A model generated the notes under the pieces. It worked only from the letters and a program-made list of their open reading frames with translations. It made no database searches and was not told where the DNA came from. 64,000 nucleotides of DNA from an uncultured Rickettsiales bacterium (GTDB lineage Bacteria; Myxococcota_A; UBA796; UBA9615). How positions within the stretch are numbered: position 1 is the first letter of the stretch; every line of letters begins with the position of its first letter. A program made the translations under genes and the position numbers. Shown here one piece after another: positions 21,035 through 61,997 of this stretch. The stretch is taken from the NCBI GenBank assembly GCA_964620495.1, contig CAZUHI010000012.1, forward strand, positions 9,018-73,017, written 5' to 3'.

Positions 21035-21138
21035 CGGAACTCCATGGGCGGGATCAGGCGTTCGAGGGGAGCCTAGAGCATGGTGCGCGATCCGGGGTCC
21101 GGGGGGCGCCCGCGCGGCCCCTCTGGCATCTTGGGGTC

Positions 21139-27345: not shown

Positions 27346-27360
27346 TCAATCAATTGATTG
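27346..27360. promoter_or_regulatory. Palindromic operator-like site 2 (TCAATCAATTGATTG), embedded in (TCAA)n/(TTGG)n tetranucleotide repeats
   Basis: 14/15 identical to site 1, 43 bp away. Contains the perfect 14-bp palindrome CAATCAATTGATTG. Overlaps the stop codon of the upstream acyltransferase gene. Confidence 0.45.
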
Positions 27361-28380
27361 GTTGGTTGGTTGACCAGGCTGATCTTCCCGGAGGCGGACC
27401 CACCGATCGACCTGCGTCCACTGTTCGCCGAGCCACTCGAGGGCCTCTTCGTCGCCCCGTGGGACCTGCTCGGCGGGGATTCGGCGGAAGTCCACGTGGA
27501 TGGTCCGACCCACCAGCCCGCCGGTCCACAGCTGCGCGCGCGAGGTCGCCCACTCGAAGCCCACGTTGCCGGTGATCACCACGTCGGCGTCCGGGGCGGA
27601 CTGCAGGACGGCCAGGCTGCCTCCCTTGCGCGGGGGGAGCACCCGGAGCAGCCGCTCGGCTCGGTCGGCCGCCTCCTCCGCCCCGGCAGCACGCAGCTTC
27701 TCGATCACGCGGGCCCGCTTCGCCGCCGTGAAGCGGGTGCCTTCGGGGTAGAGGATGACCCCCTCGTCCGGCTTCATCTCGCTCACGAGGCGTCGGATGG
27801 CGTCCAGCTGGGCGGCGGTGTCCTTGCCGTCTCGACGCACGAACACGTTCGGGAACCGGTTGCCCACGATGTCCAGGCAGGGGTCCCAGAGGAGCTCCGA
27901 CTTCACGATGTACCGCAGGGCGCGGCCGTTGCGGGTCGAGATCACGGCCGGGGAGACGAGGGTGTCCGCCACCCCGGAGTGCCGCATCAGGAAGAGCAGC
28001 TTGCCGGGGCGCCGCAGGGCCTCCTCGCCGGTCACGACCACGCGCAGCGAGTAGAGGAAGACGATCCATCGGAACAGGCCGTTGCCCCACCAGTAGGTGA
28101 GGCGCATGTTCCAGGCCGCGTAGTCGTCCGGGGAGGGGCGCAGGAGTCGACCGGCGGCCCAGATCAGGCCCGCGCCGACGATCCCGAGCATCTCGTAGAG
28201 GCTGAGGACCCACAGGGCGAGGAACGCGCGCGTCTTCGCGAACCGGAGCTCGCCGGTGAGGAGATCGAAGCCCACGAGCAGGGGCAGCGCGAGGGGCATG
28301 GCCACGGAGGCGAGCACGAGGACCACGGTCGCGCCCGTCACGCTCAGGATCCGCCGGGGGACGGGGCCGGGGATGGCCAT
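27346..28380 (-). CDS. Lysophospholipid (1-acyl-sn-glycerol-3-phosphate) acyltransferase family membrane protein
   Basis: N-terminal TM helices. HSGVAD (HX4D) and YPEGTR acyltransferase motifs. Confidence 0.8.
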   Translation of the reverse strand: MAIPGPVPRRILSVTGATVVLVLASVAMPLALPLLVGFDLLTGELRFAKTRAFLALWVLSLYEMLGIVGAGLIWAAGRLLRPSPDDYAAWNMRLTYWWGNGLFRWIVFLYSLRVVVTGEEALRRPGKLLFLMRHSGVADTLVSPAVISTRNGRALRYIVKSELLWDPCLDIVGNRFPNVFVRRDGKDTAAQLDAIRRLVSEMKPDEGVILYPEGTRFTAAKRARVIEKLRAAGAEEAADRAERLLRVLPPRKGGSLAVLQSAPDADVVITGNVGFEWATSRAQLWTGGLVGRTIHVDFRRIPAEQVPRGDEEALEWLGEQWTQVDRWVRLREDQPGQPTNQSID

Positions 28381-28390
28381 GGGACCTCCT

Positions 28391-28846
28391 TCAGAGAAGG
28401 GCCAGCGTACGCTCCGCGTTGCCCTTCGCCCGCACGTTTCGTGCGTAGGAGGCGATCTTGCCCGCAGGGTCGATGACGACGGTGGTGCGGATCACGCCCA
28501 TCCGCTTCTTGCCGTACATCGTCTTCTCGCCGTACGCGTCGTAGGCCGTGTGGACCCCGAGCTCCTTGTCCGACAGCAGGGGGAAGTTCAGGTCGTACTT
28601 CGCGATGAAGTTGCCGTGGCTCTTGAGCGAGTCCTTCGAGACCCCGAGCACCACGGCGTCCTTCGCGGCCAGCTGGGCTTGGCGGTCGCGGAAGTCGCAG
28701 GCCTGGGTGGTGCACCCGGGCGTGCTGTCCTTGGGATAGAAGTACAAGACCACGGTCTTGCCGCGCAGGGCGGACAGGGTGACGTCGCCGCCGTCGGAGG
28801 AGGGGAGGGTGAAGTCGGGGGCGGGGTCGCCGACCTGGAGGGGCAT
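28391..28846 (-). CDS. bcp: Thioredoxin-dependent peroxiredoxin Bcp
   Basis: 151 aa. VLYFYPKDSTPGCTTQAC with the peroxidatic and resolving Cys pair. Confidence 0.9.
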   Translation of the reverse strand: MPLQVGDPAPDFTLPSSDGGDVTLSALRGKTVVLYFYPKDSTPGCTTQACDFRDRQAQLAAKDAVVLGVSKDSLKSHGNFIAKYDLNFPLLSDKELGVHTAYDAYGEKTMYGKKRMGVIRTTVVIDPAGKIASYARNVRAKGNAERTLALL

Positions 28847-35181: not shown

Positions 35182-35283
35182 CTGTCCTCCGGGCCGGAGG
35201 CGACTTAAGCGCACAGGAAGACACCGCGCAAACGCGCCCCGGGTTGGCCGAAGGGCGCCGCGTCGCTGCTAGAGTCCGCCGCC

Positions 35284-44913: not shown

Positions 44914-44933
44914 CACTGAAAGTATGTTCAGTG
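44914..44933. promoter_or_regulatory. LexA (SOS) box-like palindrome upstream of imuB
   Basis: CACTGAAAGTATGTTCAGTG (CTG-N10-CAG) ends 8 nt before the imuB ATG. 18/20 identical to the site at 50531. Confidence 0.65.
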
Positions 44934-44940
44934 GTCCGCC

Positions 44941-46512
44941 ATGACGGATCGTCCCCCTCGCATCGCGTGCCTCTACGTCCCCGACTTCCGGCTGCAGGTC
45001 TCGCTCACGCGTCTGGGCGGAGAGCCAGAAGGCGGGCTCGCGCTGGTCGATCCGGATGACGGGCGTCGACTGATCGTGGCGGCCTCGCCCGCGGCGCGCA
45101 TCGACGGTGTGAAGCGGGGGATGACGTCCGTCACGGCCTGCGCCCTCGCGCCGGAGCTCACCGTCCGGGAGATCGATCCCGCGGCGCTGTCGGAGGTCCA
45201 CCTGGAGCTCGAGGACGCGGTGCGCAGCCTCTGTCCGCACTTCGAGACCACGGGCGAGGGGGTGATCTACGCCGCCTTCCACGGGCTGGAGCGTCACTAC
45301 GCAGAGGAGGGGGAGGGGGGCTTCCTCGACGATCTTCGCCTCGCCACCGAGCGACTGGGGCTGCCCGCGCGGGTGGGGATGGCGAGCACTCGGTTCTGCG
45401 CGCGGGCCGCGGCCGTCCTGGAAGGTCGCGTGCCCGGCAGAGGGGTCGCCGCGATCTGCGTCGAGCCGGGCGAGGAGCGGGAGTTCCTCGCACCCCTCCC
45501 CATCGAGCTGCTCCCGAACGCCGCGGACGTGGTGGAGGCGATGTACAAGCTCGGAGTCCGCACCCTCGGACGCTTCGCGGGGCTGCCGTCGCCGGGCATC
45601 GCGCGTCGCTTTCGGGAGCGGGGGGTTGCCCTTCAGCGCCTCGCGGGCGGGGAGGACCGAGGCACACTCATCCCGGTGGACGAGCCGCGCGCCTACACGG
45701 TCCGCGTGCTCAGCGACTACCCCATCGAACGATCCGAGGCGCTGCTGTTCCTCCTGAAGCGCCCCGTCGAGCGTCTCACCGCGGAGCTGGACGCGACGGG
45801 GTGCGCTTGTCGCGCGGTGGAGTGGTCCCTGGAGGTCGAGGGGCTCGAGCCCCAGCGGGGAGTCACTCGCTCGGCGGGCCCCTCGGCGTCGGCCAGGCTC
45901 TGGAACGACCTGCTCAAGGTCACGTTCGAGCGGATGGCGCTCAAGGCCGGGGTCCTCGCGGTGCAGCTGGAAGCGTCCGAGATCGGAGAGCGTCCGACCG
46001 ACCAGGTGCGGCTCACCGGCCCTCGCGCTGCCCCCCCCGGAGCCCTCGCGACCACCCTCGCCCACCTCGCCGCGGAGGTGGGGCCCGAGGGCTTCGGAGT
46101 GCTTCGCCCCTCTCCTTCGGTGCTGCCCGAGCTCCGGTTTCGAGCCGAGCCAGGAGACGGTCCCTTCCCCGCGAGTCCGTTGTCGAAGCGGGATCGAATC
46201 GAGTCCTGGGTGCCCGATCGCGCCCCCATCGGCGCGCTCCCCACGGGGCTGCGGTGCGTGATCCCCCCCGTGCTCGTGGAGCCCGATCTCCGGAGCGGTC
46301 GCCTCGTCGGGTTTCGCTTCGACGGGGGCTTCATGCGCGCCGACCGCGTCCTCGGGCCGTGGGACGTCTCGGGTGAGTGGTGGGAGCCCAACCCCATCCG
46401 TCGACGCTGCTTTCAGGTGGAAGGCGCGGGCAGCGAGGGCGAAGGCAGCGTCGCCCACGTCTTCCTCCAGCCGGACACCGGCTCCTGGTTCCTCACGGCG
46501 TGGTTGGACTAA
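44941..46512 (+). CDS. imuB: ImuB-like Y-family DNA polymerase homolog
   Basis: N-terminal IACLYVPDFRLQ, typical of ImuB/DinB-like proteins. About 520 aa. SOS-box context and linkage to dnaE2. Confidence 0.75.
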   Translation: MTDRPPRIACLYVPDFRLQVSLTRLGGEPEGGLALVDPDDGRRLIVAASPAARIDGVKRGMTSVTACALAPELTVREIDPAALSEVHLELEDAVRSLCPHFETTGEGVIYAAFHGLERHYAEEGEGGFLDDLRLATERLGLPARVGMASTRFCARAAAVLEGRVPGRGVAAICVEPGEEREFLAPLPIELLPNAADVVEAMYKLGVRTLGRFAGLPSPGIARRFRERGVALQRLAGGEDRGTLIPVDEPRAYTVRVLSDYPIERSEALLFLLKRPVERLTAELDATGCACRAVEWSLEVEGLEPQRGVTRSAGPSASARLWNDLLKVTFERMALKAGVLAVQLEASEIGERPTDQVRLTGPRAAPPGALATTLAHLAAEVGPEGFGVLRPSPSVLPELRFRAEPGDGPFPASPLSKRDRIESWVPDRAPIGALPTGLRCVIPPVLVEPDLRSGRLVGFRFDGGFMRADRVLGPWDVSGEWWEPNPIRRRCFQVEGAGSEGEGSVAHVFLQPDTGSWFLTAWLD

Positions 46513-50530: not shown

Positions 50531-50550
50531 TACTGAAAATATGTTCAGTG
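50531..50550. promoter_or_regulatory. LexA (SOS) box-like palindrome between the divergent SNF2 helicase and dnaE2 genes
   Basis: TACTGAAAATATGTTCAGTG in an AT-rich island. Overlaps the first in-frame GTG of the dnaE2 ORF. Confidence 0.65.
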
Positions 50551-50565
50551 TCAAACGGAGTCGAA

Positions 50566-53500
50566 TTGGGAAAGACCCAGCGAGGACGGCCCTTCGAGGT
50601 CACGTATTCAGGGGGCGCCCACCGCGGTCGCATCCCGATCCCGATCCACGTACGGCCGTCGCCCGGGCAGGGTCACGTCCCGTACGCCGAGCTGCACGCG
50701 CTCTCCACCTTCTCCTTTCGCCGCGGGGCCTCCACTCCGGAGACACTGATCCGTCAGTCGCGTGAGTTGGGGATCACGGCGCTCGCGATCACGGATCGAG
50801 ACGGTCTGTACGGCTCCGTGAGGCACTGGCTCGAGACGAAGAAGGTGAACGACGAGGAGGACGATCCGGACCCCGACCAGGTCACCAAGTACGACGGGAT
50901 CGGCCCCTATGGATCGACCCGACACCACCTGCGTGAGTCCAGCGTGAGTGATGCAGGCAGCGGCCGTAGGTATCCCGTGCCGGGGGCGATTCACGGCTCA
51001 TCGCTCACGCTCACGGACGGGTCACGCGTCGTCGCCCTCGTTCGCGATCGCGACGGCTGGCGCAACCTCTCGGCGTTGATCACGGAGTCCCGGATGTCCT
51101 GCGAGAAGGGCGACGCCGTGCTGCCGTTCGAGCGCCTGGTCGCGCGCCGGGAGGGCCTCACGATCTTGTCGGGGGGGCGCTTCGGGCCCGTCGATCGCGC
51201 GCTCCTCGGGATCGACGGGCTCTCCACGGTGCCCTGGAAGCCGAAGGGGCCGTGGCGTCGCCCCATCGGGGCCTGGAGTCTGGACGAGGACGGTCGAATC
51301 CCGGACGACACGGACGCCGCCCGGGCCGTGCGTGAGGGCCAGTCGAGCCTGCGTGAGTGGACGACGCAGCGGGATGATCCCGCCGCCCGGCTCCGTCGCG
51401 CCACCGAGACGGCGGCCCGGTTCCGCGACGCGTTCGGAGATCGCTTCTTCCTCGAGGTGCAGGACCACCGACTCCCCGAAGATCAATGGCTGCGCGGGCT
51501 CGTGGGCGGCATCGGCGTGGAGCTCGGGATCCCGCGGGTGGCCACGAACCTCGTGCACTACGCGCTCGCGGAGGACCGTCGACTTCAGGACGTCCTCGCC
51601 TGCGTGAGGCTCAAGACCACGTTGCGTGAGGCGGGGACGCGGCTGCTCCCGAACGCTCACTTCCGCCTCAAGAGCGGGGCCGAGATGGCCGCGATCTTCC
51701 ACGACGATCCGGCCGCGGTAGCGATCACGGTGGACATCGCCCGAGACCACGACTTCGACCTCACGGATCTCCCGTACGCCTTCCCGATCCACCCCACGCC
51801 GTCGGGACACACGCTGCAGACGCTGCTCGAGGAGCGCACCTGGGAGGGGGCCGCCGAGCGGTACGGCGAGCGCTTGGAGACGGATCCCCGCATCAAGGGG
51901 CAGATCCGCCACGAGCTCGACGTCATCGGTCGCATGGGGCTCGCCGGCTACTTCCTCATCGTGCAGGACGTGTCGCTCGAGTGCCGTCGTCGCGGGATCC
52001 TCAGCCAGGGGAGGGGTTCCGCCGCGAACTCCTGTGTCTGCTACTGCCTCTGCATCACGGCCGTCGATCCGATCCGGCTGGAGCTGCTCTTCGAGCGGTT
52101 CCTCTCCGAGGCGCGCGGGGGCTTTCCGGACATCGACATCGACATCTCGAACAGCAAACGCGAGGAGGTGCTGCAGTTCGTCTACGAGAAGTACGGGCGA
52201 GACCACTGCGCCATGGTCTGCAACGTCATCACGTACCACCCGCGGTCCGCGATCCGGGACGTCGGCAAGGCGTTCGGGCTGGGGCTGGACCAGGTCGACC
52301 GCATGGCGAAGGCGCTGTCGCACTACGGGGGGTTGGAGGAGCTGGAGGAGCTCTTCGGTGGGCAGGCGCGCGAGGACGCCTCCGGTTCATGCCTTCGGTT
52401 CGGTGCCTTGGGGGACGACGTTCGGACCCTCGCTCAGGTCGTCGACTTCACCCGTCGGCTGTGTGGGTACCCGAGACACATCGGCATCCACAGCGGCGGC
52501 GTCGTGATCAGCGGCGTGCCGATCGGGGAAGCCTGCCCCACCGAGAACGCGACGATGGTCGATCGCACCGTCCTGCAGTGGGACAAGGACGACGTCGCCC
52601 ACACCGGGCTCGTGAAGATCGACCTGCTCGCGCTCGGGATGTTGTCCGTGATTCAGGAGACGGCGCGGCTCCTCGCGCTTCGGGGCATCGACTTCGACAT
52701 GGCCCACCTCACCTGCGACGACCCCTCCGTCTACGACATGATCTGCGAAGGCGACACCGTCGGGCTGTTCCAGATCGAGAGCCGCGCCCAGATGAACACG
52801 CTGCCTCGGCTGCGCCCCCGCAGCTTCCACGACCTCGTGGTGGAGGTCGCGCTCATCCGCCCGGGGCCGATCCAGGGAGAGATGGTCCACCCCTACGTGC
52901 GTCGGCGGCAGGGCAAGGAGCCCATCGAGTACGCGCACCCGAGCCTGCGACCGATCCTGGAGCGCACGCTCGGCATCCCGCTCTTTCAGGAGCAGGCGAT
53001 GAAGATGGCCATCACGGCAGCGGGTTTCACGCCCGCCGAGGCGGACCGCCTGCGCAAGGTGATGGGCTTCAAGCGGGGCACCGAGGAGCTCGAGCGGCTC
53101 ATGGAGAAGATGGTCTCCGGCATGGAGGCGGGGGGCTTCTCGCCGGAGACGGCGCAGCGCGTGAAGAATCAGCTCCGGGGGTTCTCGGCGTACGGCTTCC
53201 CCGAGAGTCACGCCGCGTCCTTCGCGCTCATCGTCTACGCGTCCGCGCACCTCAAGAAGTACCGAGCGCCGGCGTTCTTCGCGGGGCTGCTCAACTGCCA
53301 GCCGATGGGCTTCTACAGCCCGGCCACGCTCGTGGGGGACGCCCGTCGCCACGGCGTCGTCATCGAGCCGGTGTGCGTCAATCGCTCGGATCACCGCTGG
53401 ACCCTGAGCGGGGAGCGGGGGATCCGGGGCGGGTTCCTGCAGGTGGCCGGGCTTGGCGAAGAGGACGGACGATCCGTCGAGGAGGCGCGTCGCCTCGGGG

Positions 53501-54138
53501 GGCCGTTCCTGGGCGTGGGGGACTTCGCGGATCGCTGCGACCTCGAGCGCCCGGTCCTCGAGAAGCTCGCCGAGGCCGGTGCCTTCACGTGTTTCGGGAT
53601 CACGCGGCGGGAGGCGCTGTGGACGGTGGCGGGGTGGAGACGTCGGCTGCCGCTCGAGGGGTTGGTGCAGGAGCGTGAGATCCCGATCTTCGCGAAGCTC
53701 GGCCCCGCGCAGCTCAACCTGCTCGACCACGCCACCGCCGGGTACAGCTCCGACGAACACCCCCTCGTCCACCTGCGTGACGAGCTCTCCAAGCGCCGGA
53801 TCGTGCCCGCCGAGAGGCTCCTGAGGATGCGCTCCGAGCGGCGCGTCGTGGTGGGGGGCGTGGTGATCACGCGGCAACGGCCCGGCACCGCGAAGGGGGT
53901 GTTCTTCATCACCCTGGAGGACGAGACCGGGTTCGTGAACGTCGTGGTGTGGAAGGACCTCTTCGAGAAGCACCGTCGCCTCCTCCGCGCGGTGCGCTTT
54001 CTCGAGGTCTACGGGACCCTCCAGATCGAGGACGGCGTCGCCAACATCCTGGCGAAGCGGTTCGTCGATCTCGAGCAGGTCTCACTCGGCGGGAAGCGCC
54101 TCGGGTGGGACACCCTCAAGTCGCGGGACTTCCACTGA
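50566..54138 (+). CDS. dnaE2: Error-prone DNA polymerase III alpha-like subunit DnaE2
   Basis: YAELHALSTFSF.RGAS PHP start, polymerase core (GRGSAANS, PDIDID), OB fold near the C-terminus. TTG at 50566 follows GGAG. The alternative GTG at 50548 lies inside the SOS box. Confidence 0.9.
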   Translation: MGKTQRGRPFEVTYSGGAHRGRIPIPIHVRPSPGQGHVPYAELHALSTFSFRRGASTPETLIRQSRELGITALAITDRDGLYGSVRHWLETKKVNDEEDDPDPDQVTKYDGIGPYGSTRHHLRESSVSDAGSGRRYPVPGAIHGSSLTLTDGSRVVALVRDRDGWRNLSALITESRMSCEKGDAVLPFERLVARREGLTILSGGRFGPVDRALLGIDGLSTVPWKPKGPWRRPIGAWSLDEDGRIPDDTDAARAVREGQSSLREWTTQRDDPAARLRRATETAARFRDAFGDRFFLEVQDHRLPEDQWLRGLVGGIGVELGIPRVATNLVHYALAEDRRLQDVLACVRLKTTLREAGTRLLPNAHFRLKSGAEMAAIFHDDPAAVAITVDIARDHDFDLTDLPYAFPIHPTPSGHTLQTLLEERTWEGAAERYGERLETDPRIKGQIRHELDVIGRMGLAGYFLIVQDVSLECRRRGILSQGRGSAANSCVCYCLCITAVDPIRLELLFERFLSEARGGFPDIDIDISNSKREEVLQFVYEKYGRDHCAMVCNVITYHPRSAIRDVGKAFGLGLDQVDRMAKALSHYGGLEELEELFGGQAREDASGSCLRFGALGDDVRTLAQVVDFTRRLCGYPRHIGIHSGGVVISGVPIGEACPTENATMVDRTVLQWDKDDVAHTGLVKIDLLALGMLSVIQETARLLALRGIDFDMAHLTCDDPSVYDMICEGDTVGLFQIESRAQMNTLPRLRPRSFHDLVVEVALIRPGPIQGEMVHPYVRRRQGKEPIEYAHPSLRPILERTLGIPLFQEQAMKMAITAAGFTPAEADRLRKVMGFKRGTEELERLMEKMVSGMEAGGFSPETAQRVKNQLRGFSAYGFPESHAASFALIVYASAHLKKYRAPAFFAGLLNCQPMGFYSPATLVGDARRHGVVIEPVCVNRSDHRWTLSGERGIRGGFLQVAGLGEEDGRSVEEARRLGGPFLGVGDFADRCDLERPVLEKLAEAGAFTCFGITRREALWTVAGWRRRLPLEGLVQEREIPIFAKLGPAQLNLLDHATAGYSSDEHPLVHLRDELSKRRIVPAERLLRMRSERRVVVGGVVITRQRPGTAKGVFFITLEDETGFVNVVVWKDLFEKHRRLLRAVRFLEVYGTLQIEDGVANILAKRFVDLEQVSLGGKRLGWDTLKSRDFH

Positions 54139-54845
54139 TGGGCGCCGCCGCTCCGAAACTCGACGAACTCCGGGACCTGCTTCGGTCGAAGTTCCCCGGC
54201 GCGGGGGTCTTGGATCGACCCGAGTACGGGGTCTTGTCGACCGGCTTGGGCGAGCTCGACGCGGTCCTCCCCGGCGGGGTCCCCCTGGGGGCCATGACGC
54301 TGCTCACGGGAGGGGCGTCCTGCGGCAAGACGGGGATCGCGCTGGCGGCCGCGGCCGGGGTCACCCGGGGGGAGGGGAGGGTCGCGTGGGTGCACGACGG
54401 GTCCCTCTCGGCGCCGTCTCTGGCGCACGCGGGGGTGGCGCCGGAGCGGGTGCTTCAGGTCCGGGCCGAGTCCACCGCCCAGGCCCTGCGCTGCACGGAC
54501 TTCCTCCTTCGCTGGCAGGCGTTCCACTTCCTCGTGCTCGACTGGCCCCGACCGGCCGCCCGAGGCCCCGCGTGGAATCGGCTGAACCGCTTGGTCACCG
54601 GAGCGCCCCACGCGCTGATGGTGCTCTGCGCGCCACGGCCCCCCGGATCTCCGGTTCGGTTCTGCGCGGCGGTGCACCTCCGCGTCGAGCGCCACGACGG
54701 CGGCACCCGAGTCAAGCTGGCGAAGTCTCGATTCACGCGCGCGAGCGAACACGCCGTGCTCCGTCGCCGAGGGATGCCGGGCGCTCCGTTCGAGCTGCTC
54801 CCCGAGCACCCCGGTCTGGGACAGCGCCGCCACGAAGACTGGTGA
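54138..54845 (+). CDS. imuA: ImuA-like RecA-fold protein
   Basis: STGLGELDAVLPGGVPLGAMTLL and GGASCGKTG resemble ImuA/SulA-like cassette proteins. The ATG shares one nucleotide with the dnaE2 TGA. Confidence 0.6.
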   Translation: MGAAAPKLDELRDLLRSKFPGAGVLDRPEYGVLSTGLGELDAVLPGGVPLGAMTLLTGGASCGKTGIALAAAAGVTRGEGRVAWVHDGSLSAPSLAHAGVAPERVLQVRAESTAQALRCTDFLLRWQAFHFLVLDWPRPAARGPAWNRLNRLVTGAPHALMVLCAPRPPGSPVRFCAAVHLRVERHDGGTRVKLAKSRFTRASEHAVLRRRGMPGAPFELLPEHPGLGQRRHEDW

Positions 54846-54866
54846 CGTCCGGGTAGAGTCCAGCCC

Positions 54867-56900
54867 GTGACGGAGCCGCCTCCGAACGCCCTACGTCGCC
54901 GGATGCGTGGCTTCCTGACGGTCGCCTGGGTCGTCCTCCTCCCGGTGCTCGCCGCCCTCGCGCGCCTGGTCGGGCACCCGGAGTACTACTTCGACGGGGA
55001 GACGCAGATCCCGCCGACCATCGGCCGCGAGCTCCTCCACGGGCACCTGGCCGACGCGTTCCACTACCAGATCATCGTCTACCAGGGCTCGCTGCTGTGG
55101 GACGCCCTGCTCAGCGCCGGTGCCTACGCCGTCTTCGGGGACCACCTGCTCGCGTGGCACGCCGTCCCCCTGGGCTACCTCGCGGGGCTCTCCGTGGCGG
55201 GGACCCTCCTGCTCCGTCGCCTCGTCGGCCCCGGGTGGTCCCTCCTGTTCCCGGCCCTGCTCGGCACGCTGCCCTTCTTCGTGAAGGACGGGTTCGTCTC
55301 CGGCATCGGCGGACACGCGCCCGGGGCCTTCTACGCGGTGGCCGGGCTCGCCGCCGCCGCGTACTCCGGCGGGGAGGGGGGCAAGCGACGGTACGCAGTG
55401 CTCGCCGGGCTCATCCTCGGCTTCGGGACCTGGTACGTACGCACCGTGCTGCTCGCCATCCCCGCGGCGCTGCTGCTCGTGGGGCACCGCGTGGTCGGTC
55501 GCTTGCTGCTGGTTCTTGGCCTCCTGTCGCTCCCTGTGCTGCTCGCCCTGAACGTCGTGGCGCTGCAGTCCGCGGGCAGTCACGCGGCCGCCCAGGGGAC
55601 CATCGAGGATCTCACCCGCGAGGTGGTCTGGAACGTCCAGGGGACGGCTCCCCACTCGGTCCCCGCGGCCACGAAGGTCCTCCAGGCCACCGGCCCGGGC
55701 ATCCGGACCCTCCTCTTCGCCCAGCCTCACCGCCACCGGACGGTCACGCAGTCCCACCGGCCCCTCGCCTACACCGCGGGCCTGACGTGGTCGGTGGCGT
55801 GGCCCGCGGGCCTGGTCCTCCTCCCCGCCTTGCTCCTGGTCCCCGGGATCCGCCGTCGCCCGGGGACGGTCCCCGGCGTCCTCGCCGTCTTCGCGCTGGG
55901 GGCGGCGTACGTCGGCGCCTATGCCTTCTCGTCGCTGAACCTCGACCCCGGGATCACGGAGTCGCTCCGCCAATACCCGCCGCTCCCCCCCGGCGTGAGC
56001 GGAGGTCGCTACCTCGTCCCCATCTTCGGCGTCCTCACGCTCTCCCTGGCCCTCGCGGTGGGTCTGCTGGGGACCCTCGCGCCCCGGATCGCCGCGGCCG
56101 CGATCGCTCCCGTCCTGGCCCTGGGCCTCATCCCCGCGGCCGGCGACTGGGCCTACGACCGAGACCCGATCGAGATCTGGCGCACGAAGCAGCCGCACAT
56201 CTACTCGGGGGCCTTCGGGCCGGGCCGGGGCCCCCCGCTCGAGGCCCACCTCGCCTGCGACGACCCCGACGAGCAGAGCCGGGAAGCACACCTGGAGGCG
56301 ATCGGCAGGTTCCTCGTGGCCGAGTCGGGCGAAGATCCGGCGTCGCTCGTCGCGTCTGTGGAGCGGCTGCGGGAGACGGGCCGGACGGACGAAGAGATCG
56401 GGAGGCTGGTGGGCAGCCTCGGGTCGACGATGATCCGCGAGATGCGCGGAGGCAGCCTCTCCTTCATGGAGGCGACCAAGCTCGTCTTCGAGACCGCCGA
56501 GGCGCTCGGCCCCGGACCCGGAGACGCCTACCTCCTGGGCACCCGATCGTCGTTCCGGGACGGGGGCCTGGACGCGCCGGCCGCGGACGTGGTCGACCGC
56601 CTCTGCGCGACGGCGCCGTCGGGGACGCGGCCCCTGTGCTCCTTCGCCGGGGAGGCGCTGGCGGACCCCAACGCCGCGCTGTGGCCCGACCGGCCCGAGG
56701 GCCTCTTCCGCCCCGGGATGCCGTCGTTCGACGGCCTCGAGCGCTCCACCCGGGACGCCTTGCTGTTCGGCGCCGCCGCAGCGATCACGAGAGGGACGCC
56801 CGGCGAGCTGCCCGCCGCCTGGCCCGAGGGCTGGGATCCCGAAGATGGGCGGACGTTCGTCCGCAAGTGGAGGGTCAAGGGCGGCCGCGTGGGGCCGTGA
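54867..56900 (+). CDS. Polytopic integral membrane protein with a soluble C-terminal domain (function unknown)
   Basis: Many hydrophobic helices in the first ~450 aa. GC3-rich. Starts 22 nt downstream of imuA. Confidence 0.5.
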   Translation: MTEPPPNALRRRMRGFLTVAWVVLLPVLAALARLVGHPEYYFDGETQIPPTIGRELLHGHLADAFHYQIIVYQGSLLWDALLSAGAYAVFGDHLLAWHAVPLGYLAGLSVAGTLLLRRLVGPGWSLLFPALLGTLPFFVKDGFVSGIGGHAPGAFYAVAGLAAAAYSGGEGGKRRYAVLAGLILGFGTWYVRTVLLAIPAALLLVGHRVVGRLLLVLGLLSLPVLLALNVVALQSAGSHAAAQGTIEDLTREVVWNVQGTAPHSVPAATKVLQATGPGIRTLLFAQPHRHRTVTQSHRPLAYTAGLTWSVAWPAGLVLLPALLLVPGIRRRPGTVPGVLAVFALGAAYVGAYAFSSLNLDPGITESLRQYPPLPPGVSGGRYLVPIFGVLTLSLALAVGLLGTLAPRIAAAAIAPVLALGLIPAAGDWAYDRDPIEIWRTKQPHIYSGAFGPGRGPPLEAHLACDDPDEQSREAHLEAIGRFLVAESGEDPASLVASVERLRETGRTDEEIGRLVGSLGSTMIREMRGGSLSFMEATKLVFETAEALGPGPGDAYLLGTRSSFRDGGLDAPAADVVDRLCATAPSGTRPLCSFAGEALADPNAALWPDRPEGLFRPGMPSFDGLERSTRDALLFGAAAAITRGTPGELPAAWPEGWDPEDGRTFVRKWRVKGGRVGP

Positions 56901-57352: not shown

Positions 57353-59197
57353 TCAACTCTCCGTGCCCGAGAGGCTGACGGACTGCACGCCGGCGTCGCC
57401 CGCGGACTCGGCCCGGTCGCGCAGGGAGGCGTGGTAGTTGCGAAGGAACTGGGACAGCTGCTTGAGGCTCGCCCCGTCGGCTCGCTTCACGAGGGCCATC
57501 CGGCCCCGCTTCAACGCCTGCTCCGTGTCGAAGATCTCGCGCTTCTTGAGCTTGACCTGGTTGGCGCGCAGGAAGTTCTCGAGGGAGAAGAGCTGCTTCT
57601 CGACGGAGTGCCGCAGCGACTCGACCTCCTTGTCCACCTCGTCCGACTTCTCGAAGCCGGCCAGTTCCTCGCGCGCGGTCTCCAGATCCTCCTGCGTCAT
57701 CGACGACGGGGAGTGGATCGTGATGCCGGTGCGTGCCCCGGTCTTCACGTCCCGGGCGCCGACGTTGACGATGCCGTCGGTGTCGATCGTGAACGTGACC
57801 TCGATGCGGGCGTGGCCCTTCGGGGCGGGCTCGATGCCGGTGAGCTCGAAGTCGCCCAGGGAGATGTTGTCCTTCGCGAGCTCCTCCTCGCCCTGGAGGA
57901 CGTGGATCTTCACGGACGCCTGGCTGTCGACGACCGTGGAGACCATCTGCGACCGGACCACCGGGACCGTGGAGCCTTTGGGGATGAGCCGCGCGGAGCG
58001 TCGACCCTGAACCTCGATGCCGAGGCTGAAGTTGGTGACGTCCAGCAGCGTGACGTCGGTGACGCTGCCGCCGAGCATGCCCGCCTGGACCGCGGCGCCG
58101 ACGGCCACCACCTCGTCCGGGTTGAAGGACTTGTTCAGCGGGCAGCCGAACAGCTCCTTGACCATCTCCTGGACCTTCGGGATGCGGCTGCTGCCGCCCA
58201 CGAGGATGACCTCGTCGATGTCCCCGGTGCCGAGCCGCCCCTCCTTCATCGCCTTGCGGCAGTCGTCGATCGTCTGCTGGAGCAGGTCCGCGACGAGGAA
58301 CTCGAAGGTGGCGCGCGTGAGCGTCGTCTGGAGGTGCTTCGGCCCCGTCTCATCGGCGGTGAGGAACGGCAGGTGGATCTCGGTCTCCAGGGCCGTGGAG
58401 AGGTCCATCTTCGCCTTCTCGGCCGTCTCGAGCAGGCGCTGCTCGACGACGGAGTCCCCGCGGATGTCGAGGCCGTTGGCCTTCTCGAACTCCGAGGCGA
58501 GCCACTCGAGGAGCCGCAGATCGATGTCCGAGCCGCCCAGGCGGTTCGAGCCGGCCGTGGCCCGCACCTCGGCGAGGTCCTTGTCGACGTCCAGGATCGA
58601 GATGTCGAAGGTGCCGCCGCCGAAGTCGAAGACCGCGATGGTGGCTTCCCGCCGGCGCTTCATCGTGTAGGCGAGCGCGGCCGCGGTGGGCTCGTTGATG
58701 ATCCGCAGGACCTCGAGCCCCGCGATGCGTCCCGCGTCCTTGGTCGCCTGTCGCTGCGCGTCCGTGAAGTACGCGGGGACGGTGATGACCGCCTGGTCGA
58801 CGATCTCGCCGAGGAAGTCCTCGCTCGCCTTCTTCAGCTTCTGGAGGATGAAGGCCGAGATCTGCTGGGGGGTGTAGGAGCGGCCCGCCACGGCGATGTT
58901 CAGCTCGTCGTCGCCCTGGCGCTCGATGGTGTACGTCACGCCCTTGATGTCGGCCCGGGAGTCGGAGAAGCGCCTCCCCATGAACCGCTTGACGCCGTAG
59001 ACGGTCGTCTCCGGCGACATCAGCAGCTGACGCTTGGCGATGTCTCCGACGAACCGGTCGCCGTCGCTCGAGAACCCGACGACCGACGGGGTCAGTCGCC
59101 CTCCCTCTTCGTTGACGATGACGCGCGCGTCCCCGTGCTCGATGGCACAGGCGACCGAGTTCGTCGTCCCGAGGTCGATGCCGATGATCTTGCCCAT
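57353..59197 (-). CDS. Hsp70 family chaperone (DnaK paralog) with a non-canonical C-terminus
   Basis: IGIDLGTTNS, DFGGGTFD, VILVGGSSRIP and the substrate-binding beta domain are conserved. The lid/C-terminal tail differs from DnaK, with no EEVD-like or Gly/Ala tail. Confidence 0.85.
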   Translation of the reverse strand: MGKIIGIDLGTTNSVACAIEHGDARVIVNEEGGRLTPSVVGFSSDGDRFVGDIAKRQLLMSPETTVYGVKRFMGRRFSDSRADIKGVTYTIERQGDDELNIAVAGRSYTPQQISAFILQKLKKASEDFLGEIVDQAVITVPAYFTDAQRQATKDAGRIAGLEVLRIINEPTAAALAYTMKRRREATIAVFDFGGGTFDISILDVDKDLAEVRATAGSNRLGGSDIDLRLLEWLASEFEKANGLDIRGDSVVEQRLLETAEKAKMDLSTALETEIHLPFLTADETGPKHLQTTLTRATFEFLVADLLQQTIDDCRKAMKEGRLGTGDIDEVILVGGSSRIPKVQEMVKELFGCPLNKSFNPDEVVAVGAAVQAGMLGGSVTDVTLLDVTNFSLGIEVQGRRSARLIPKGSTVPVVRSQMVSTVVDSQASVKIHVLQGEEELAKDNISLGDFELTGIEPAPKGHARIEVTFTIDTDGIVNVGARDVKTGARTGITIHSPSSMTQEDLETAREELAGFEKSDEVDKEVESLRHSVEKQLFSLENFLRANQVKLKKREIFDTEQALKRGRMALVKRADGASLKQLSQFLRNYHASLRDRAESAGDAGVQSVSLSGTES

Positions 59198-59362
59198 GTG
59201 CCCTCGATGCGGCCCTCTGGGGCCGTACAACAACCCAGGGTACCACTCGCTCCCCGCCCTCTTCAACGACACATCGCGTGGACGCGGGCGCGCGAACGTT
59301 GACACCGCCCGCCGAGGGCCGGATGCTCGCTCGACCGGGGCCCGATGGGCCCTTGCCGCGGG

Positions 59363-59439
59363 GCCCGGGTAGCCCAATGGGTAGAGGCAGGGGACTTAAA
59401 ATCCCCCCAGTGTGGGTTCGAGCCCCACCCCGGGTACCA
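59363..59439 (+). tRNA. 77-nt cloverleaf tRNA, anticodon UAA (would decode UUA Leu), short 5-nt variable region, encoded CCA
   Basis: Acceptor GCCCGGG/CCCGGGT. U8. D stem GCC/GGC with loop CAATGGGTAGA. Anticodon stem GGGGA/TCCCC with loop CT-TAA-AA. Variable region CCAGT. T arm GTGGG-TTCGAGC-CCCAC. A73, then CCA. Confidence 0.7.
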
Positions 59440-59463
59440 GTTTTCGCCGTCGACGGAGCCCTC

Positions 59464-60000
59464 ATGCGCCTTCTCCTCCTCCTCTCCTTCGGCGTCGTGC
59501 CGCTCGCCCTCGTGGGGTGCGACCCCCCGGGCGACGACGACGACAGCGCCGGTCCCACCCCCGGCCCCGAGGACTACTGCGACGTCGATCCGGCGTTCAA
59601 CTCGCCCGTCATCGAGAGCGTGGACGCGTGCGAGTGCGAGGGGACGGTCGACCGCTGCGAGGAGCTCGGCGAGGCCGAGGGCTCCTTCCAGACGCGCTGG
59701 GCCATCACCGTGAGCGACGTCGACGGCGACCTCATCAACCCGAGCTACCTGCTCGGCGTCGACACCTTCCCGCCCTACCTCAGCGGCCGCCTCGAGGGCA
59801 GCCTCGGCGAAGGCGGGACGCTCAACCTGGACATCCAGGGCTGCAACCTCTTCACCCGCGGCGAGGAGGTGCCCTTCTCCGCGCGCATGACCGACCAGGG
59901 GCGCTGCGAGAGTGAAGAGTTCCTGGGCGAGTGGTTCGTCCCCGAGCGCGAGGGCGACGACACGTGCCCGACCCTCTGCGCCGCCCTGGGTGGCGGCTGA
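59464..60000 (+). CDS. Cys-rich acidic lipoprotein (hypothetical)
   Basis: Lipobox LALVGC. Eight further cysteines. GGAG before the ATG. The stop overlaps the start of the MoxR-like gene. Confidence 0.55.
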   Translation: MRLLLLLSFGVVPLALVGCDPPGDDDDSAGPTPGPEDYCDVDPAFNSPVIESVDACECEGTVDRCEELGEAEGSFQTRWAITVSDVDGDLINPSYLLGVDTFPPYLSGRLEGSLGEGGTLNLDIQGCNLFTRGEEVPFSARMTDQGRCESEEFLGEWFVPEREGDDTCPTLCAALGGG

Positions 60001-60824
60001 TGTCGGGCTTCGACCGCTTCTCGGGGACCGCGAAGTACATCGCCGATCCGTCGCTCAGCCGGGACGTGAACGCGGCCGTCGCGCTCGGCAGGCCGCTGCT
60101 GGTCAAGGGGGAGCCCGGGACGGGCAAGACGCTGCTCGCCACCGCGGTGTCCGACGCGCTCGGCATGCCGCTCATCACCTGGCACGTGAAGTCGACGACG
60201 AAGGCGCAGGACGGCCTCTACCACTACGACGTCGTGCAGCGGCTCAACGACAGCCGCTTCGGCGACGGGGACATCTCGGACATCCGCCGCTACATCAAGG
60301 ACGGGGTGCTCGGCCGCGCCTTCAAGTCGGAGGAGCGGGTCGTCCTGCTCATCGACGAGATCGACAAGGCCGACCTCGAGTTCCCCAACGACCTGCTGCA
60401 CGAGCTGGACGCGATGTCCTTTCACGTGCACGAGCTCGACGAGACCGTCTCGGCGAAGCAGCGGCCCGTCGTCGTCATCACGTCGAACGCGGAGAAGGAG
60501 CTGCCGGACGCGTTCCTGCGGCGGTGCGTCTTCCATTACATCGACTTCCCGTCGCGCGACCAGATGGAGACGATCGTGCGCGTGCACTTCCCGGAGGTCG
60601 AGGACCGGCTCCTGGAGGCCGCGATCGTGCGCTTCTACGAGGTGCGACGGGTGCGAGGGCTGCGGAAGAAGCCGAGCACCAGCGAGCTGATCGACTGGCT
60701 CTTCGTGCTGATGCGCGGGGGCCTGGACCCCACCGACGTGGCCCGGAACCTCCCGTTCCTCGGGGCGCTGCTCAAGCAGGAGCAGGACACCGAGCTCGTG
60801 GAGCGGAAGCTGGGCGTCGCGTAG
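60000..60824 (+). CDS. MoxR/CbbQ-like AAA+ ATPase
   Basis: Walker A GEPGTGKT, Walker B LLIDEIDKA, sensor ITSN, and FLRR. Confidence 0.85.
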   Translation: MSGFDRFSGTAKYIADPSLSRDVNAAVALGRPLLVKGEPGTGKTLLATAVSDALGMPLITWHVKSTTKAQDGLYHYDVVQRLNDSRFGDGDISDIRRYIKDGVLGRAFKSEERVVLLIDEIDKADLEFPNDLLHELDAMSFHVHELDETVSAKQRPVVVITSNAEKELPDAFLRRCVFHYIDFPSRDQMETIVRVHFPEVEDRLLEAAIVRFYEVRRVRGLRKKPSTSELIDWLFVLMRGGLDPTDVARNLPFLGALLKQEQDTELVERKLGVA

Positions 60825-60827
60825 CCC

Positions 60828-61997
60828 GTGTTCGCCGACTTCCTGGTCTCGCTGAGACGTCGCGGGCTCCCGGTCGGGGCCAACGAGTGGCTCGCGTTCC
60901 ACGACGCGCTCGGCAAGGACCTGATCCGCGACCTCGACGACCTGTACGGGGTCGGCCGGGCGCTCCTGGTCCACTCCGAGGGCGGCTTCGACCCGTACGA
61001 CCTCGCCTTCGCAGAGACGTTCCAGGGCGCCGAGATCCAGGAGGTCGCGGACGCGCTCAAGGCGTGGCTCGCGTCGCCGGTGGACCCGTCGGGCCTCAGC
61101 CCCGAGGCCTTCGAGCAGCTCACGGGCATGTCCCTCGAGGAGCTCCGCCGGAAGTTCCAGGAGACGCTCGAGCAGCAGAAGGAGCGCCACGATCGCGGGA
61201 ACCGATGGGTGGGGACCGGCGGCACGAGCCCCTACGGGAACTCCGGTCGCAACCCGTCGGGGATCCGGGTGGGCGAGGGCGGCGGTCGCTCGGCGGTCCA
61301 GGTCGCCCAGGAGCGGAGGTACCGGAACTACCGGACCGACGTCACCATCGACGTGCGTCAGTTCAAGACCGCGCTGCGGGCCCTGCGGAGCCTCGGCCGC
61401 GAGGGCGAAGAGGTCCTGGACCTCGACGACACCATCGACGAGACCTGCCGGATGGGGGGGGAGATCGAGCTCGTCTTCAACCCCGAGCGCAAGAACACGG
61501 TGCGGCTCCTCTTGCTGATGGACACCGGGGGATCGATGACGCCCTACGCCCGCCTCGTGGATCGGCTCTTCACGGCGGCCTCGGAGTCGTCGCACTGGAA
61601 GAGCTTCGAGGCCCTCAGCTTCCACAACGTGCCCTACGGGCGGCTCTACACCGACATGGAGCGCCTCGAGGCCCAACCCACCGAGGAGGTCCTGCGGAAC
61701 CACCCCAAGAACACCAAGGTCGTGTTCGTGGGGGACGCATGCATGGCCCCCTGGGAGCTCACCGCCGTCGGGGGCGCGATCGGGCTGTGGGACCACAACG
61801 CGGCGAGCGGGCTCGACTGGGTCCAGCGGTTCCGGCGTCGTTTCCCGAACGCGATCTGGCTCAACCCCGAGCCGGAGCGATTCTGGCGGCACCCCACGAT
61901 CGAGGCGATCGGCAACGTGCTCCCCATGTTCCCCCTCTCCCTCGATGGCCTACGCGCCGGGATCAAGAAGTTGAAGCGGGGACCGGCGGTGCGTTAG
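60828..61997 (+). CDS. VWA domain protein, CoxE-like
   Basis: N-terminal F...LR..G..V family pattern. MIDAS-like LLMDTGGSM. Paired with the MoxR ATPase. Confidence 0.75.
   Translation: MFADFLVSLRRRGLPVGANEWLAFHDALGKDLIRDLDDLYGVGRALLVHSEGGFDPYDLAFAETFQGAEIQEVADALKAWLASPVDPSGLSPEAFEQLTGMSLEELRRKFQETLEQQKERHDRGNRWVGTGGTSPYGNSGRNPSGIRVGEGGGRSAVQVAQERRYRNYRTDVTIDVRQFKTALRALRSLGREGEEVLDLDDTIDETCRMGGEIELVFNPERKNTVRLLLLMDTGGSMTPYARLVDRLFTAASESSHWKSFEALSFHNVPYGRLYTDMERLEAQPTEEVLRNHPKNTKVVFVGDACMAPWELTAVGGAIGLWDHNAASGLDWVQRFRRRFPNAIWLNPEPERFWRHPTIEAIGNVLPMFPLSLDGLRAGIKKLKRGPAVR

Follow-up and report, generated by a model that had tools for sequence, protein, structure and literature searches.

Locus and gene structure

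The window, that is, the whole 64,000-nucleotide stretch of DNA analysed here, has a GC content of about 72% and carries on its forward strand a 77-nt tRNA gene with the anticodon UAA (59363–59439, encoded CCA included). On one side of the 266-bp gap that holds the gene lies a divergently transcribed Hsp70-family gene, and on the other an operon for a lipoprotein, a MoxR-like ATPase and a VWA protein. A preceding sequence-only reading had placed a lone tRNA gene between a divergent Hsp70 paralog and a lipoprotein–MoxR–VWA operon, and the Pfam matches and coordinates bear this out. Beyond the operon follow tRNA-Gln(ttg), prs, the genes for L25, pth, S6 and L9, and dnaB. The Hsp70-family protein is also present on metagenome contigs. 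The window belongs to a metagenome contig of 294 kb, and a second assembly, independent of the first, contains an identical segment. The locus is organised as follows:

57353–59197, minus strand: Hsp70-family gene, 614 aa, divergently transcribed (Pfam HSP70, E = 2.6e-200)
59299–59327, plus strand: promoter-like element, with a perfect −35 hexamer TTGACA (59299–59304), a 17-nt spacer and a weak −10 hexamer GATGCT (59322–59327)
59363–59439, plus strand: tRNA gene, anticodon UAA
59464–61997, plus strand: operon 3′ of the tRNA on the same strand, its first gene 25 nt past the tRNA
59464–60000, plus strand: lipoprotein, operon gene 1
60000–60824, plus strand: AAA/MoxR-like ATPase, operon gene 2
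60828–61997, plus strand: VWA_CoxE protein, operon gene 3

The full tRNA gene is GCCCGGG-TA-GCC-CAATGGGTAGA-GGC-A-GGGGA-CTTAAAA-TCCCC-CCAGT-GTGGG-TTCGAGC-CCCAC-CCCGGGT-A-CCA, in which these elements were assigned from the sequence:

59363–59369 and 59429–59435, plus strand: acceptor stem GCCCGGG/CCCGGGT, with G1–U72
59370, plus strand: U8
59372–59388, plus strand: Leu-type D arm, 3-bp stem GCC (59372–59374)/GGC (59386–59388), with a C13/A22 mismatch
59375–59385, plus strand: D loop of 11 nt (CAATGGGTAGA), with A14, A15 (59377), G18 and G19
59390–59406, plus strand: anticodon arm GGGGA/CTTAAAA/TCCCC
59395–59401, plus strand: anticodon loop CUUAAAA, with U33, the anticodon UAA (59397–59399) and A36-A37-A38
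59407–59411, plus strand: variable loop CCAGT, 5 nt, with U48 (59411) as Levitt-pair partner of A15 (59377)
59412–59428, plus strand: T arm GTGGG/TTCGAGC/CCCAC
59436 and 59437–59439, plus strand: A73 and the genome-encoded CCA

ARAGORN called a tRNA-Leu(taa) at exactly these coordinates. The Rfam tRNA model RF00005 aligned over its full length (model positions 1–71) and scored 58.2 bits, well above its gathering score of 29 (E = 5.6e-10); the sole non-canonical pair in this alignment is 13–22, which leaves a D stem of 3 bp. The universal tRNA positions are all intact, and U8:A14, G18G19, the 15:48 Levitt pair and A73-C74-C75-A76 are present. These checks agree with every structural detail that had been read from the sequence beforehand. 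The minimum free energy (MFE) fold of the single sequence was not a cloverleaf and was no better than shuffles (z = −1.31), a method that is uninformative for tRNAs.

Scanning the 64-kb window with ARAGORN and Rfam yielded no further tRNALeu gene, and no leuS lies in the window. An 82-nt ‘tRNA-Ala’ called by ARAGORN at 27595–27676 is a false positive; it has no Rfam call and runs antisense within an acyltransferase ORF.

Orthologous loci and a promoter-like element

The locus is syntenic in two further metagenome-assembled genomes (MAGs), L004 and L037, which have a GC content of 58–61%. The genes stand in the same order, with amino-acid identities to the window proteins of 67% for Hsp70, 35–36% for the lipoprotein, 75–78% for the MoxR-like ATPase, 63% for the VWA protein and 71% for Prs. 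Taxon labels of MAGs, such as ‘Rickettsiales’ for L004, are used here as deposited and may be wrong. The tRNAs of both relatives are 92–93% identical to the window tRNA and share its 5-nt variable loop, whereas the intergenic flanks no longer align.

The promoter-like element, which lies about 35 nt 5′ of the tRNA gene, was read by eye and then compared between orthologous loci. A consensus promoter scan of 58800–59800 called no promoter; it missed the element because the −10 hexamer GATGCT fits only three of six positions. TTGACA and the 17-nt spacer recur in all three loci, 25–40 nt upstream of the tRNA, and at the L004 and L037 loci they are followed by an xAxAxT hexamer amid otherwise non-aligning intergenic DNA. 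We infer from this comparison that the element at 59299–59327 is the promoter of the tRNA gene. A consensus scan of the same interval revealed no terminator-like site between the tRNA and the downstream operon, so that transcription could read through, and co-transcription of the tRNA with the lipoprotein operon is possible.

Codon usage and the probable decoding role of the tRNA

Before start sites were checked, the 32 high-GC3 reading frames of the window (~16,075 codons) contained 82 TTG and 2 TTA codons. Both apparent TTA codons proved to lie upstream of a Shine-Dalgarno sequence and ATG start, which reduces the TTA count to 0. The orthologous genes of the relatives likewise hold 0 TTA, with 35 TTG in ~2,100 codons. 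Because UUA is absent from the window genes, UUG probably makes up the everyday decoding load of this tRNA.

One suggestion of the sequence-only reading, a natural class I decoder of UUA, gains backing from comparative sequence evidence. We consider it likely that 59363–59439 encodes a functional type I tRNALeu(UAA), i.e. one with a 5-nt variable loop, which would read UUG and the almost unused UUA.

A further suggestion was a regulatory role like that of bldA, in which the tRNA, as a rare-codon decoder, would gate a few TTA-containing genes. Exactly such a role is known for tRNALeu(UAA) in Streptomyces (PMC6614811), and several features of the locus would suit it: TTA is extremely rare (0 in ~16,000 window codons), and the tRNA is a solitary gene that has a promoter-like element of its own and directly precedes an operon, with no terminator in between. 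However, in the absence of TTA from both the 64-kb window and the relatives' orthologues, no target gene can be named there. The same type of tRNA is also kept in genomes that should be less poor in UUA, namely those of the 58–61% GC relatives and of low-GC phages, and UUG, with ~82 occurrences in 16,000 codons, supplies an ordinary housekeeping reason for keeping the gene. A bldA-like role thus finds no support in the ~16,000 window codons and ~2,100 codons of the relatives, and we regard it as improbable. It would be compatible with a functional type I tRNALeu(UAA) as the best explanation, and is not an alternative to it.

A family of short-armed tRNALeu(UAA) in bacteria and phages

The wider distribution of such tRNAs was surveyed with the pattern GGTAGA N8-9 YTTAAAA N14-16 GTTCRANNC, in which nothing but loop sequences and the spacing across a short variable region is specified, and which has a chance expectation of 0.00 in the window. 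It is notable that this one loops-only pattern matched at least 120 loci in a scan of one representative genome per GTDB species, and at least 120 viral contigs in IMG/VR. These counts are lower bounds, and the pattern in addition misses family members without GGTAGA. ARAGORN called a tRNA(taa) of 74–79 nt in 116 of the 120 genome loci listed, with at least 120 species matching. Among the viral matches listed, the D-arm signature CCAR..GGYARAGR is present in 94 of 115 tRNAs, and the contigs that carry a family tRNA span 25–70% GC. A query of deposited phage genomes with the family consensus returned 255 records; the matches are annotated as tRNA-Leu, and tRNA-Leu genes of 74–78 nt occur in many deposited phage genomes. 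Mycobacteriophage Bonray, for example, has a 74-nt tRNA-Leu(gag) and a 75-nt tRNA-Leu(caa) beside an 86-nt tRNA-Leu(cag).

Among the matches listed, many carriers belong to Actinomycetota (Nocardioides, Lentzea, Saccharothrix, Actinosynnema, Curtobacterium, Micrococcaceae, Actinomycetaceae). The others include Myxococcota/‘Deltaproteobacteria’ MAGs (Lujinxingia), picocyanobacteria, Alphaproteobacteria, Planctomycetota and Acidobacteriota. Family tRNAs are also found within long tRNA arrays, on plasmids as well as chromosomes, and the tRNA of one viral contig is identical to chromosomal Curtobacterium copies.

An alignment of 97 distinct sequences gave the consensus GCCCCCGUAGCCCAAYNGGUAGAGGCA-stem-CUUAAAA-stem-NCAGU-GUGGGUUCGARUCCCAC-CGGGGG(C/U)A. 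GGTAGA, the anticodon loop and the T loop are fixed by the search pattern, and their invariance across the family carries no independent weight; the similarity of the 97 sequences goes far past what the pattern imposed. At least 90% of them have A73. Across the cloverleaf and the 15–48 pair, 98.9% of cells hold standard pairs, compared with 69.5% in column shuffles and 36–49% with slid partners. Changes on both sides of a pair were seen in 20 of 21 pairs, the tertiary 15–48 pair included, which is A–U in 91 and G–C in 5 of the 97 sequences. This alignment shows a short-armed UAA tRNA family that is under structural selection and whose stems evolve by compensatory change.

The abundance of the family in viral contigs, annotated phages and long tRNA arrays, together with the identity between a viral tRNA and chromosomal Curtobacterium copies, raises the possibility that the window gene arrived recently from a phage or a tRNA array. 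It would then be a non-core spare, held against codon bias or tRNA-cleaving defence nucleases. Against such an arrival, the gene stands singly among housekeeping genes (tRNA-Gln, prs, L25, pth, S6, L9, dnaB), and synteny of the locus extends over three MAGs at 63–78% protein identity. The flanking ORFs examined include no integrase or phage genes. Its nearest relatives are the chromosomal orthologues (92–93%), whereas viral copies reach at most 84% among the matches listed. We therefore consider a recent origin from a phage or a tRNA array very unlikely; on the best explanation, the tRNALeu(UAA) gene resides in the chromosome of a high-GC marine MAG lineage that bears the label ‘Deltaproteobacteria’.

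A broader and doubtful idea is that the short-armed tRNALeu form one ancient, horizontally mobile lineage that moves between phages, arrays and chromosomes, and that in several high-GC lineages, among them that of this MAG, a chromosomal copy took the place of the class II tRNA and became the sole decoder of the UUR leucine codons. If such a replacement took place, many bacterial LeuRS would accept an armless tRNALeu, which would then not be a peculiarity of Streptomyces, and the long variable arm would be dispensable for leucine identity across bacteria.

The short variable loop as an inherited state

The sequence-only reading had also offered a relic as an explanation, namely a tRNALeu from which the variable arm was deleted, and the gene could accordingly be a non-functional pseudogene or an assembly artefact. 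The only gap in an alignment with E. coli leuZ is indeed 10 nt long and falls exactly at the variable arm. With no TTA codons in the window, a UUA decoder could be under weak selection, and the MFE fold is the non-cloverleaf described above. Yet the 5-nt loop is kept at the orthologous loci of both relatives, where the flanks have diverged. In L004 the T stem is GCGGG/CCCGC instead of the GTGGG/CCCAC of the window, a compensatory change from U–A to C–G. A long variable arm in orthologues, which had been named as the sign of a sequencing or assembly deletion, was not found, L004 and L037 both being short, and the same sequence stands in two independent metagenome assemblies. All helices of the window tRNA are paired and its universal positions intact, with a model score of 58.2 bits against the gathering score of 29. 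It also belongs to a family of more than 230 members with 98.9% pairing (97 distinct sequences) and strong, pervasive compensatory covariation.

By orthologue comparison, the short variable loop is the inherited state at this tRNA locus. A relic or artefact is largely refuted already, and we consider it very unlikely.

Evidence for leucine rather than phenylalanine identity

The reference genes for this comparison, leuZ and pheV, were taken by coordinates from E. coli; blastn of the window tRNA against 5,426 E. coli genomes gave no useful hit. The features that the sequence-only reading had given for E. coli tRNALeu(UAA) were checked against leuZ itself. Its acceptor is GCCCGGA..TCCGGGT-A and its D loop GAATCGGTAGA, and its variable region exceeds that of the window tRNA by exactly 10 nt. 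Whole-sequence identity of the window tRNA is 77.9% to leuZ (aligned columns) and 75.0% to pheV, and does not separate Leu from Phe. Leu is enriched among its 50 nearest neighbours with anticodons other than UAA, with 18 of them, but Tyr, Asn and Trp tRNAs are interspersed. Since whole-sequence identity is too weak as an isotype test, the D-arm signature and a trained profile were used instead.

In its architecture the window tRNA resembles leuZ, with a 3-bp D stem, an 11-nt loop of the form xAAUxGGUAGA, A15:U48, U72 and A73. The tRNAPhe encoded by pheV has instead a 4-bp D stem, an 8-nt loop, G15, the variable loop GUGUC and U59-U60, where the window tRNA has G59-C60. The D-arm signature points the same way. 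Among the 1,194 tRNAs of the listed loci it occurs outside UAA tRNAs in 24, each of which has a Leu anticodon (caa 7, cag 3, gag 4, tag 10), and in none of the ~869 non-Leu tRNAs of these loci.

A profile HMM was trained on 67 short type I Leu tRNAs with non-UAA anticodons, the anticodon being masked. The window tRNA scored 46.0 bits on this profile, close to the training median of 48.7 and far from the median of 11.9 for non-Leu tRNAs (n = 783). UAA tRNAs on a Phe scaffold (L107, L121 and L005) scored 15–21 bits. Only two ‘non-Leu’ tRNAs outscored the window tRNA, and both have a Leu scaffold: one is a UAA tRNA that was mis-registered by ARAGORN, and in the other, from a Symploca tRNA array, the Leu-type scaffold bears the anticodon GAA and the T loop is damaged. 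Leucine is favoured for the window tRNA because its architecture, the D-arm signature and the independent profile agree.

A mis-identified tRNA derived from tRNAPhe by a change of G34 to U, charged with Phe or another amino acid and mistranslating UUA and UUG, would account for the resemblance of the acceptor and anticodon stems to those of E. coli tRNAPhe (GCCCGGA..., GGGGA/UCCCC; 75% identity to pheV), for the class I form that tRNAPhe has, and for its parallels in the genuine Phe-scaffold UAA tRNAs (L107, L121) and in the Leu-type scaffold with a GAA anticodon in the Symploca array, but it is hardly credible for a tRNA with a 3-bp D stem, an 11-nt loop, A15:U48, CCAGT and G59-C60, with 46.0 bits on the Leu profile against 15–21 for Phe-like UAA tRNAs, with a D-arm signature that outside UAA tRNAs is limited to Leu anticodons, and without G34, a major PheRS determinant in the identity of E. 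coli tRNAPhe.

Known short-armed tRNALeu and a proposed path to decoding

In textbooks, bacterial tRNALeu has a long extra (variable) arm. The sequence-only reading had started from the premise that bacterial tRNALeu are always class II, which is too strong, as type I forms occur in Streptomyces, in mycobacterial clusters and in phages. The tRNALeu(CAA) of Streptomyces coelicolor is type I, with the variable loop A44-C45-A46-G47-C48 (Fan et al., 2019, NAR, PMC6614811). The single LeuRS of this organism (ScoLeuRS) charges it at ~44% of the kcat/Km for the type II tRNALeu(UAA); U8:A14 and C74 are important for charging, as is a variable loop no shorter than 5 nt, while A73 and the stem of the variable arm are unimportant (PMC6614811). 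The type I tRNALeu(CAA) of S. coelicolor is not a substrate of E. coli LeuRS, and the ability to charge it was mapped to the leucine-specific domain of LeuRS (PMC6614811). According to work cited in the same paper, S. coelicolor tRNALeu(CAA) given a UAA anticodon suppresses a bldA mutant (PMC6614811). The authors describe ‘almost all’ bacterial tRNALeu as type II and ScoLeuRS as ‘the only prokaryotic LeuRS’ that charges both types (PMC6614811). A short-variable-loop tRNALeu(TAG) has been reported from mycobacterial tRNA clusters (Behra et al., 2019, PMC6582537). We found no mention of short-armed tRNALeu in a paper on long tRNA arrays (PMC8421152) or in a 2023 review of tRNA identity (PMC9976931).

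A path from the window gene to decoding can be proposed. The TTGACA-type promoter of the tRNALeu(UAA) gene would drive its transcription, and the transcript would be processed to the encoded CCA end. A single cellular LeuRS would then leucylate it, without reading the anticodon and without need of a variable arm, and would recognise it through U8:A14, the geometry of elbow and core, the 3′ end and a variable loop no shorter than 5 nt, as experiments showed for S. coelicolor tRNALeu(CAA). The charged tRNA would read UUG and the almost unused UUA through U34 wobble, and the A36-A37-A38 context makes modification of U34 and A37 probable. If the failure of E. coli LeuRS to charge the S. coelicolor type I tRNA is a guide, charging of the window tRNA would depend on the host LeuRS. 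A class II tRNALeu(UAA) or a tRNALeu(CAA) may be encoded elsewhere in the genome and would then make the type I gene redundant.

The window tRNA shares with S. coelicolor tRNALeu(CAA) a 5-nt variable loop of like composition (ACAGC there, CCAGT here, NCAGU in the family consensus), U8:A14, G18G19 and A73-CCA, and both are chromosomal singletons of high-GC genomes with anticodons for the UUR box. They differ in the anticodon, which is UAA here, in the host, which is a non-actinobacterial MAG, and in the Levitt pair, A15:U48 here compared with C48 there. Homology with the S. coelicolor tRNA rests on the described features of the latter and on family members from other actinomycetes.

With the class II tRNALeu encoded by leuZ and bldA, the window tRNA has in common the anticodon loop (CUUAAAA/UUUAAAA), G1–U72 and A73, the 3-bp D stem, the 11-nt loop xAAUxGGUAGA and A15:U48. 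Unlike these, it has no stem-loop variable arm (the 10-nt gap relative to leuZ), and its D stem is GCC/GGC instead of GUG/CAC. The short tRNA-Leu of phages and arrays, such as those of Bixzunavirus mycobacteriophages or the mycobacterial tRNALeu(TAG) (PMC6582537), have the same scaffold, the D-arm signature and a length of 74–78 nt. These copies are mobile, come in multi-tRNA sets and are accessory to the canonical tRNAs of the host, whereas the window gene stands singly in a chromosome, at a locus that is conserved.

The kind of tRNA described here is already known from Streptomyces biochemistry and phage annotation; new are the UAA anticodon and the host lineage. Short-armed tRNALeu of bacteria and phages are under-described in their breadth, and are commoner than textbooks and PMC6614811 imply. 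For the window itself the consequence is small: the tRNA gene is normal and functional-looking, and annotators already label such genes tRNA-Leu.

At the level of individual features, the window tRNA also resembles animal mitochondrial tRNALeu(UUR), which is class I with a UAA anticodon and A73. The mitochondrial tRNA differs in its degenerate elbow and its evolutionary context, and its human form is not charged by the S. coelicolor LeuRS (PMC6614811).

Codon usage in the window

Within roughly 16,000 codons of high-GC3 frames in the window, only two in-frame TTA triplets were found, at 35208 and 41136, both in minus-strand frames. Each lies 5' of a Shine-Dalgarno sequence and ATG start, those of an ion-transport protein and of a metallo-beta-lactamase-fold protein, and the window therefore contains no TTA codon. 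TTG occurs about 82 times in the same set of codons.

Short leucine tRNAs on viral contigs and in tRNA arrays

A viral contig from IMG/VR (L131, GC 0.65) carries a short tRNA(UAA) that does not differ from the copies on the chromosomes of Curtobacterium species (L047, L060 and L086). In Curtobacterium the gene may sit at the edge of a prophage or at an attachment site. Among the matches listed, where tRNA genes stand in long arrays or in phage clusters (L055, L068, L073, L077, L095, L108, L122 and many viral loci), tRNA-Leu was mostly short whatever its anticodon; for tRNA-Leu(caa), 24 short genes were counted versus 4 long ones. The tRNA-Ser and tRNA-Tyr genes of these arrays and clusters retained their long arms. 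Further tRNAs of unusual setting or build were the following.

Unusual tRNAs among the fetched loci
L017, 7482-7558, plus strand: bacterial-looking short tRNA(UAA) with encoded CCA, on a contig assigned by binning to a Nitrososphaerales archaeon
L052, 3664-3740, minus strand: tRNA(UAA) with a class II-type Leu D arm (GGUGGAAUUGGUAGACAC) and a 5-nt variable loop, on an alphaproteobacterial chromosome
L107, 3281-3356, and L121, 694-769: tRNAPhe-type scaffolds with a UAA anticodon, in Massilia and a Clostridia MAG
L054, 1363-1440, minus strand: leucine-type scaffold (UAGCCCAAUUGGAAGAGGC) with a GAA (Phe) anticodon, in a Symploca tRNA array

For the archaeal-binned contig, mis-binning, a virus or transfer are possible explanations. 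In L052, the combination of a canonical class II-type D arm with a 5-nt loop suggests an independent loss of the variable arm, outside the main family of short tRNA(UAA) genes. The L107 and L121 genes share the scaffold AGCUCAGUYGGUAGAGCA and the variable loop GUGUC; they represent a separate way in which a class I tRNA has come to bear a leucine anticodon. The Symploca tRNA has an aberrant T loop (GUACGAC); its gene may be a copy in decay, or the tRNA a potential source of mistranslation.

Other features of the window

18386-21136, minus strand: single 916-aa ORF with amino-acid kinase, ACT and Orn/DAP/Arg decarboxylase domains
27595-27676, plus strand: 82-nt tRNA-Ala(tgc) called by ARAGORN
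44920-46512 and 50548-56900, plus strand: mutasome-type genes, just upstream of the divergent Hsp70 paralogue

Rfam makes no call at 27595-27676, where the supposed tRNA-Ala(tgc) runs antisense within an acyltransferase ORF (27346-28491, minus strand); the ARAGORN prediction is almost certainly spurious. The 916-aa ORF looks like an aspartokinase/diaminopimelate-decarboxylase-like fusion. The mutasome-type set comprises four proteins: one of IMS (ImuB/Y-family-like) type, a polymerase of DnaE2 type (PHP, DNA_pol3_alpha), one of 235 aa that matches RecA_N weakly, and one of 665 aa for which Pfam gave no match.
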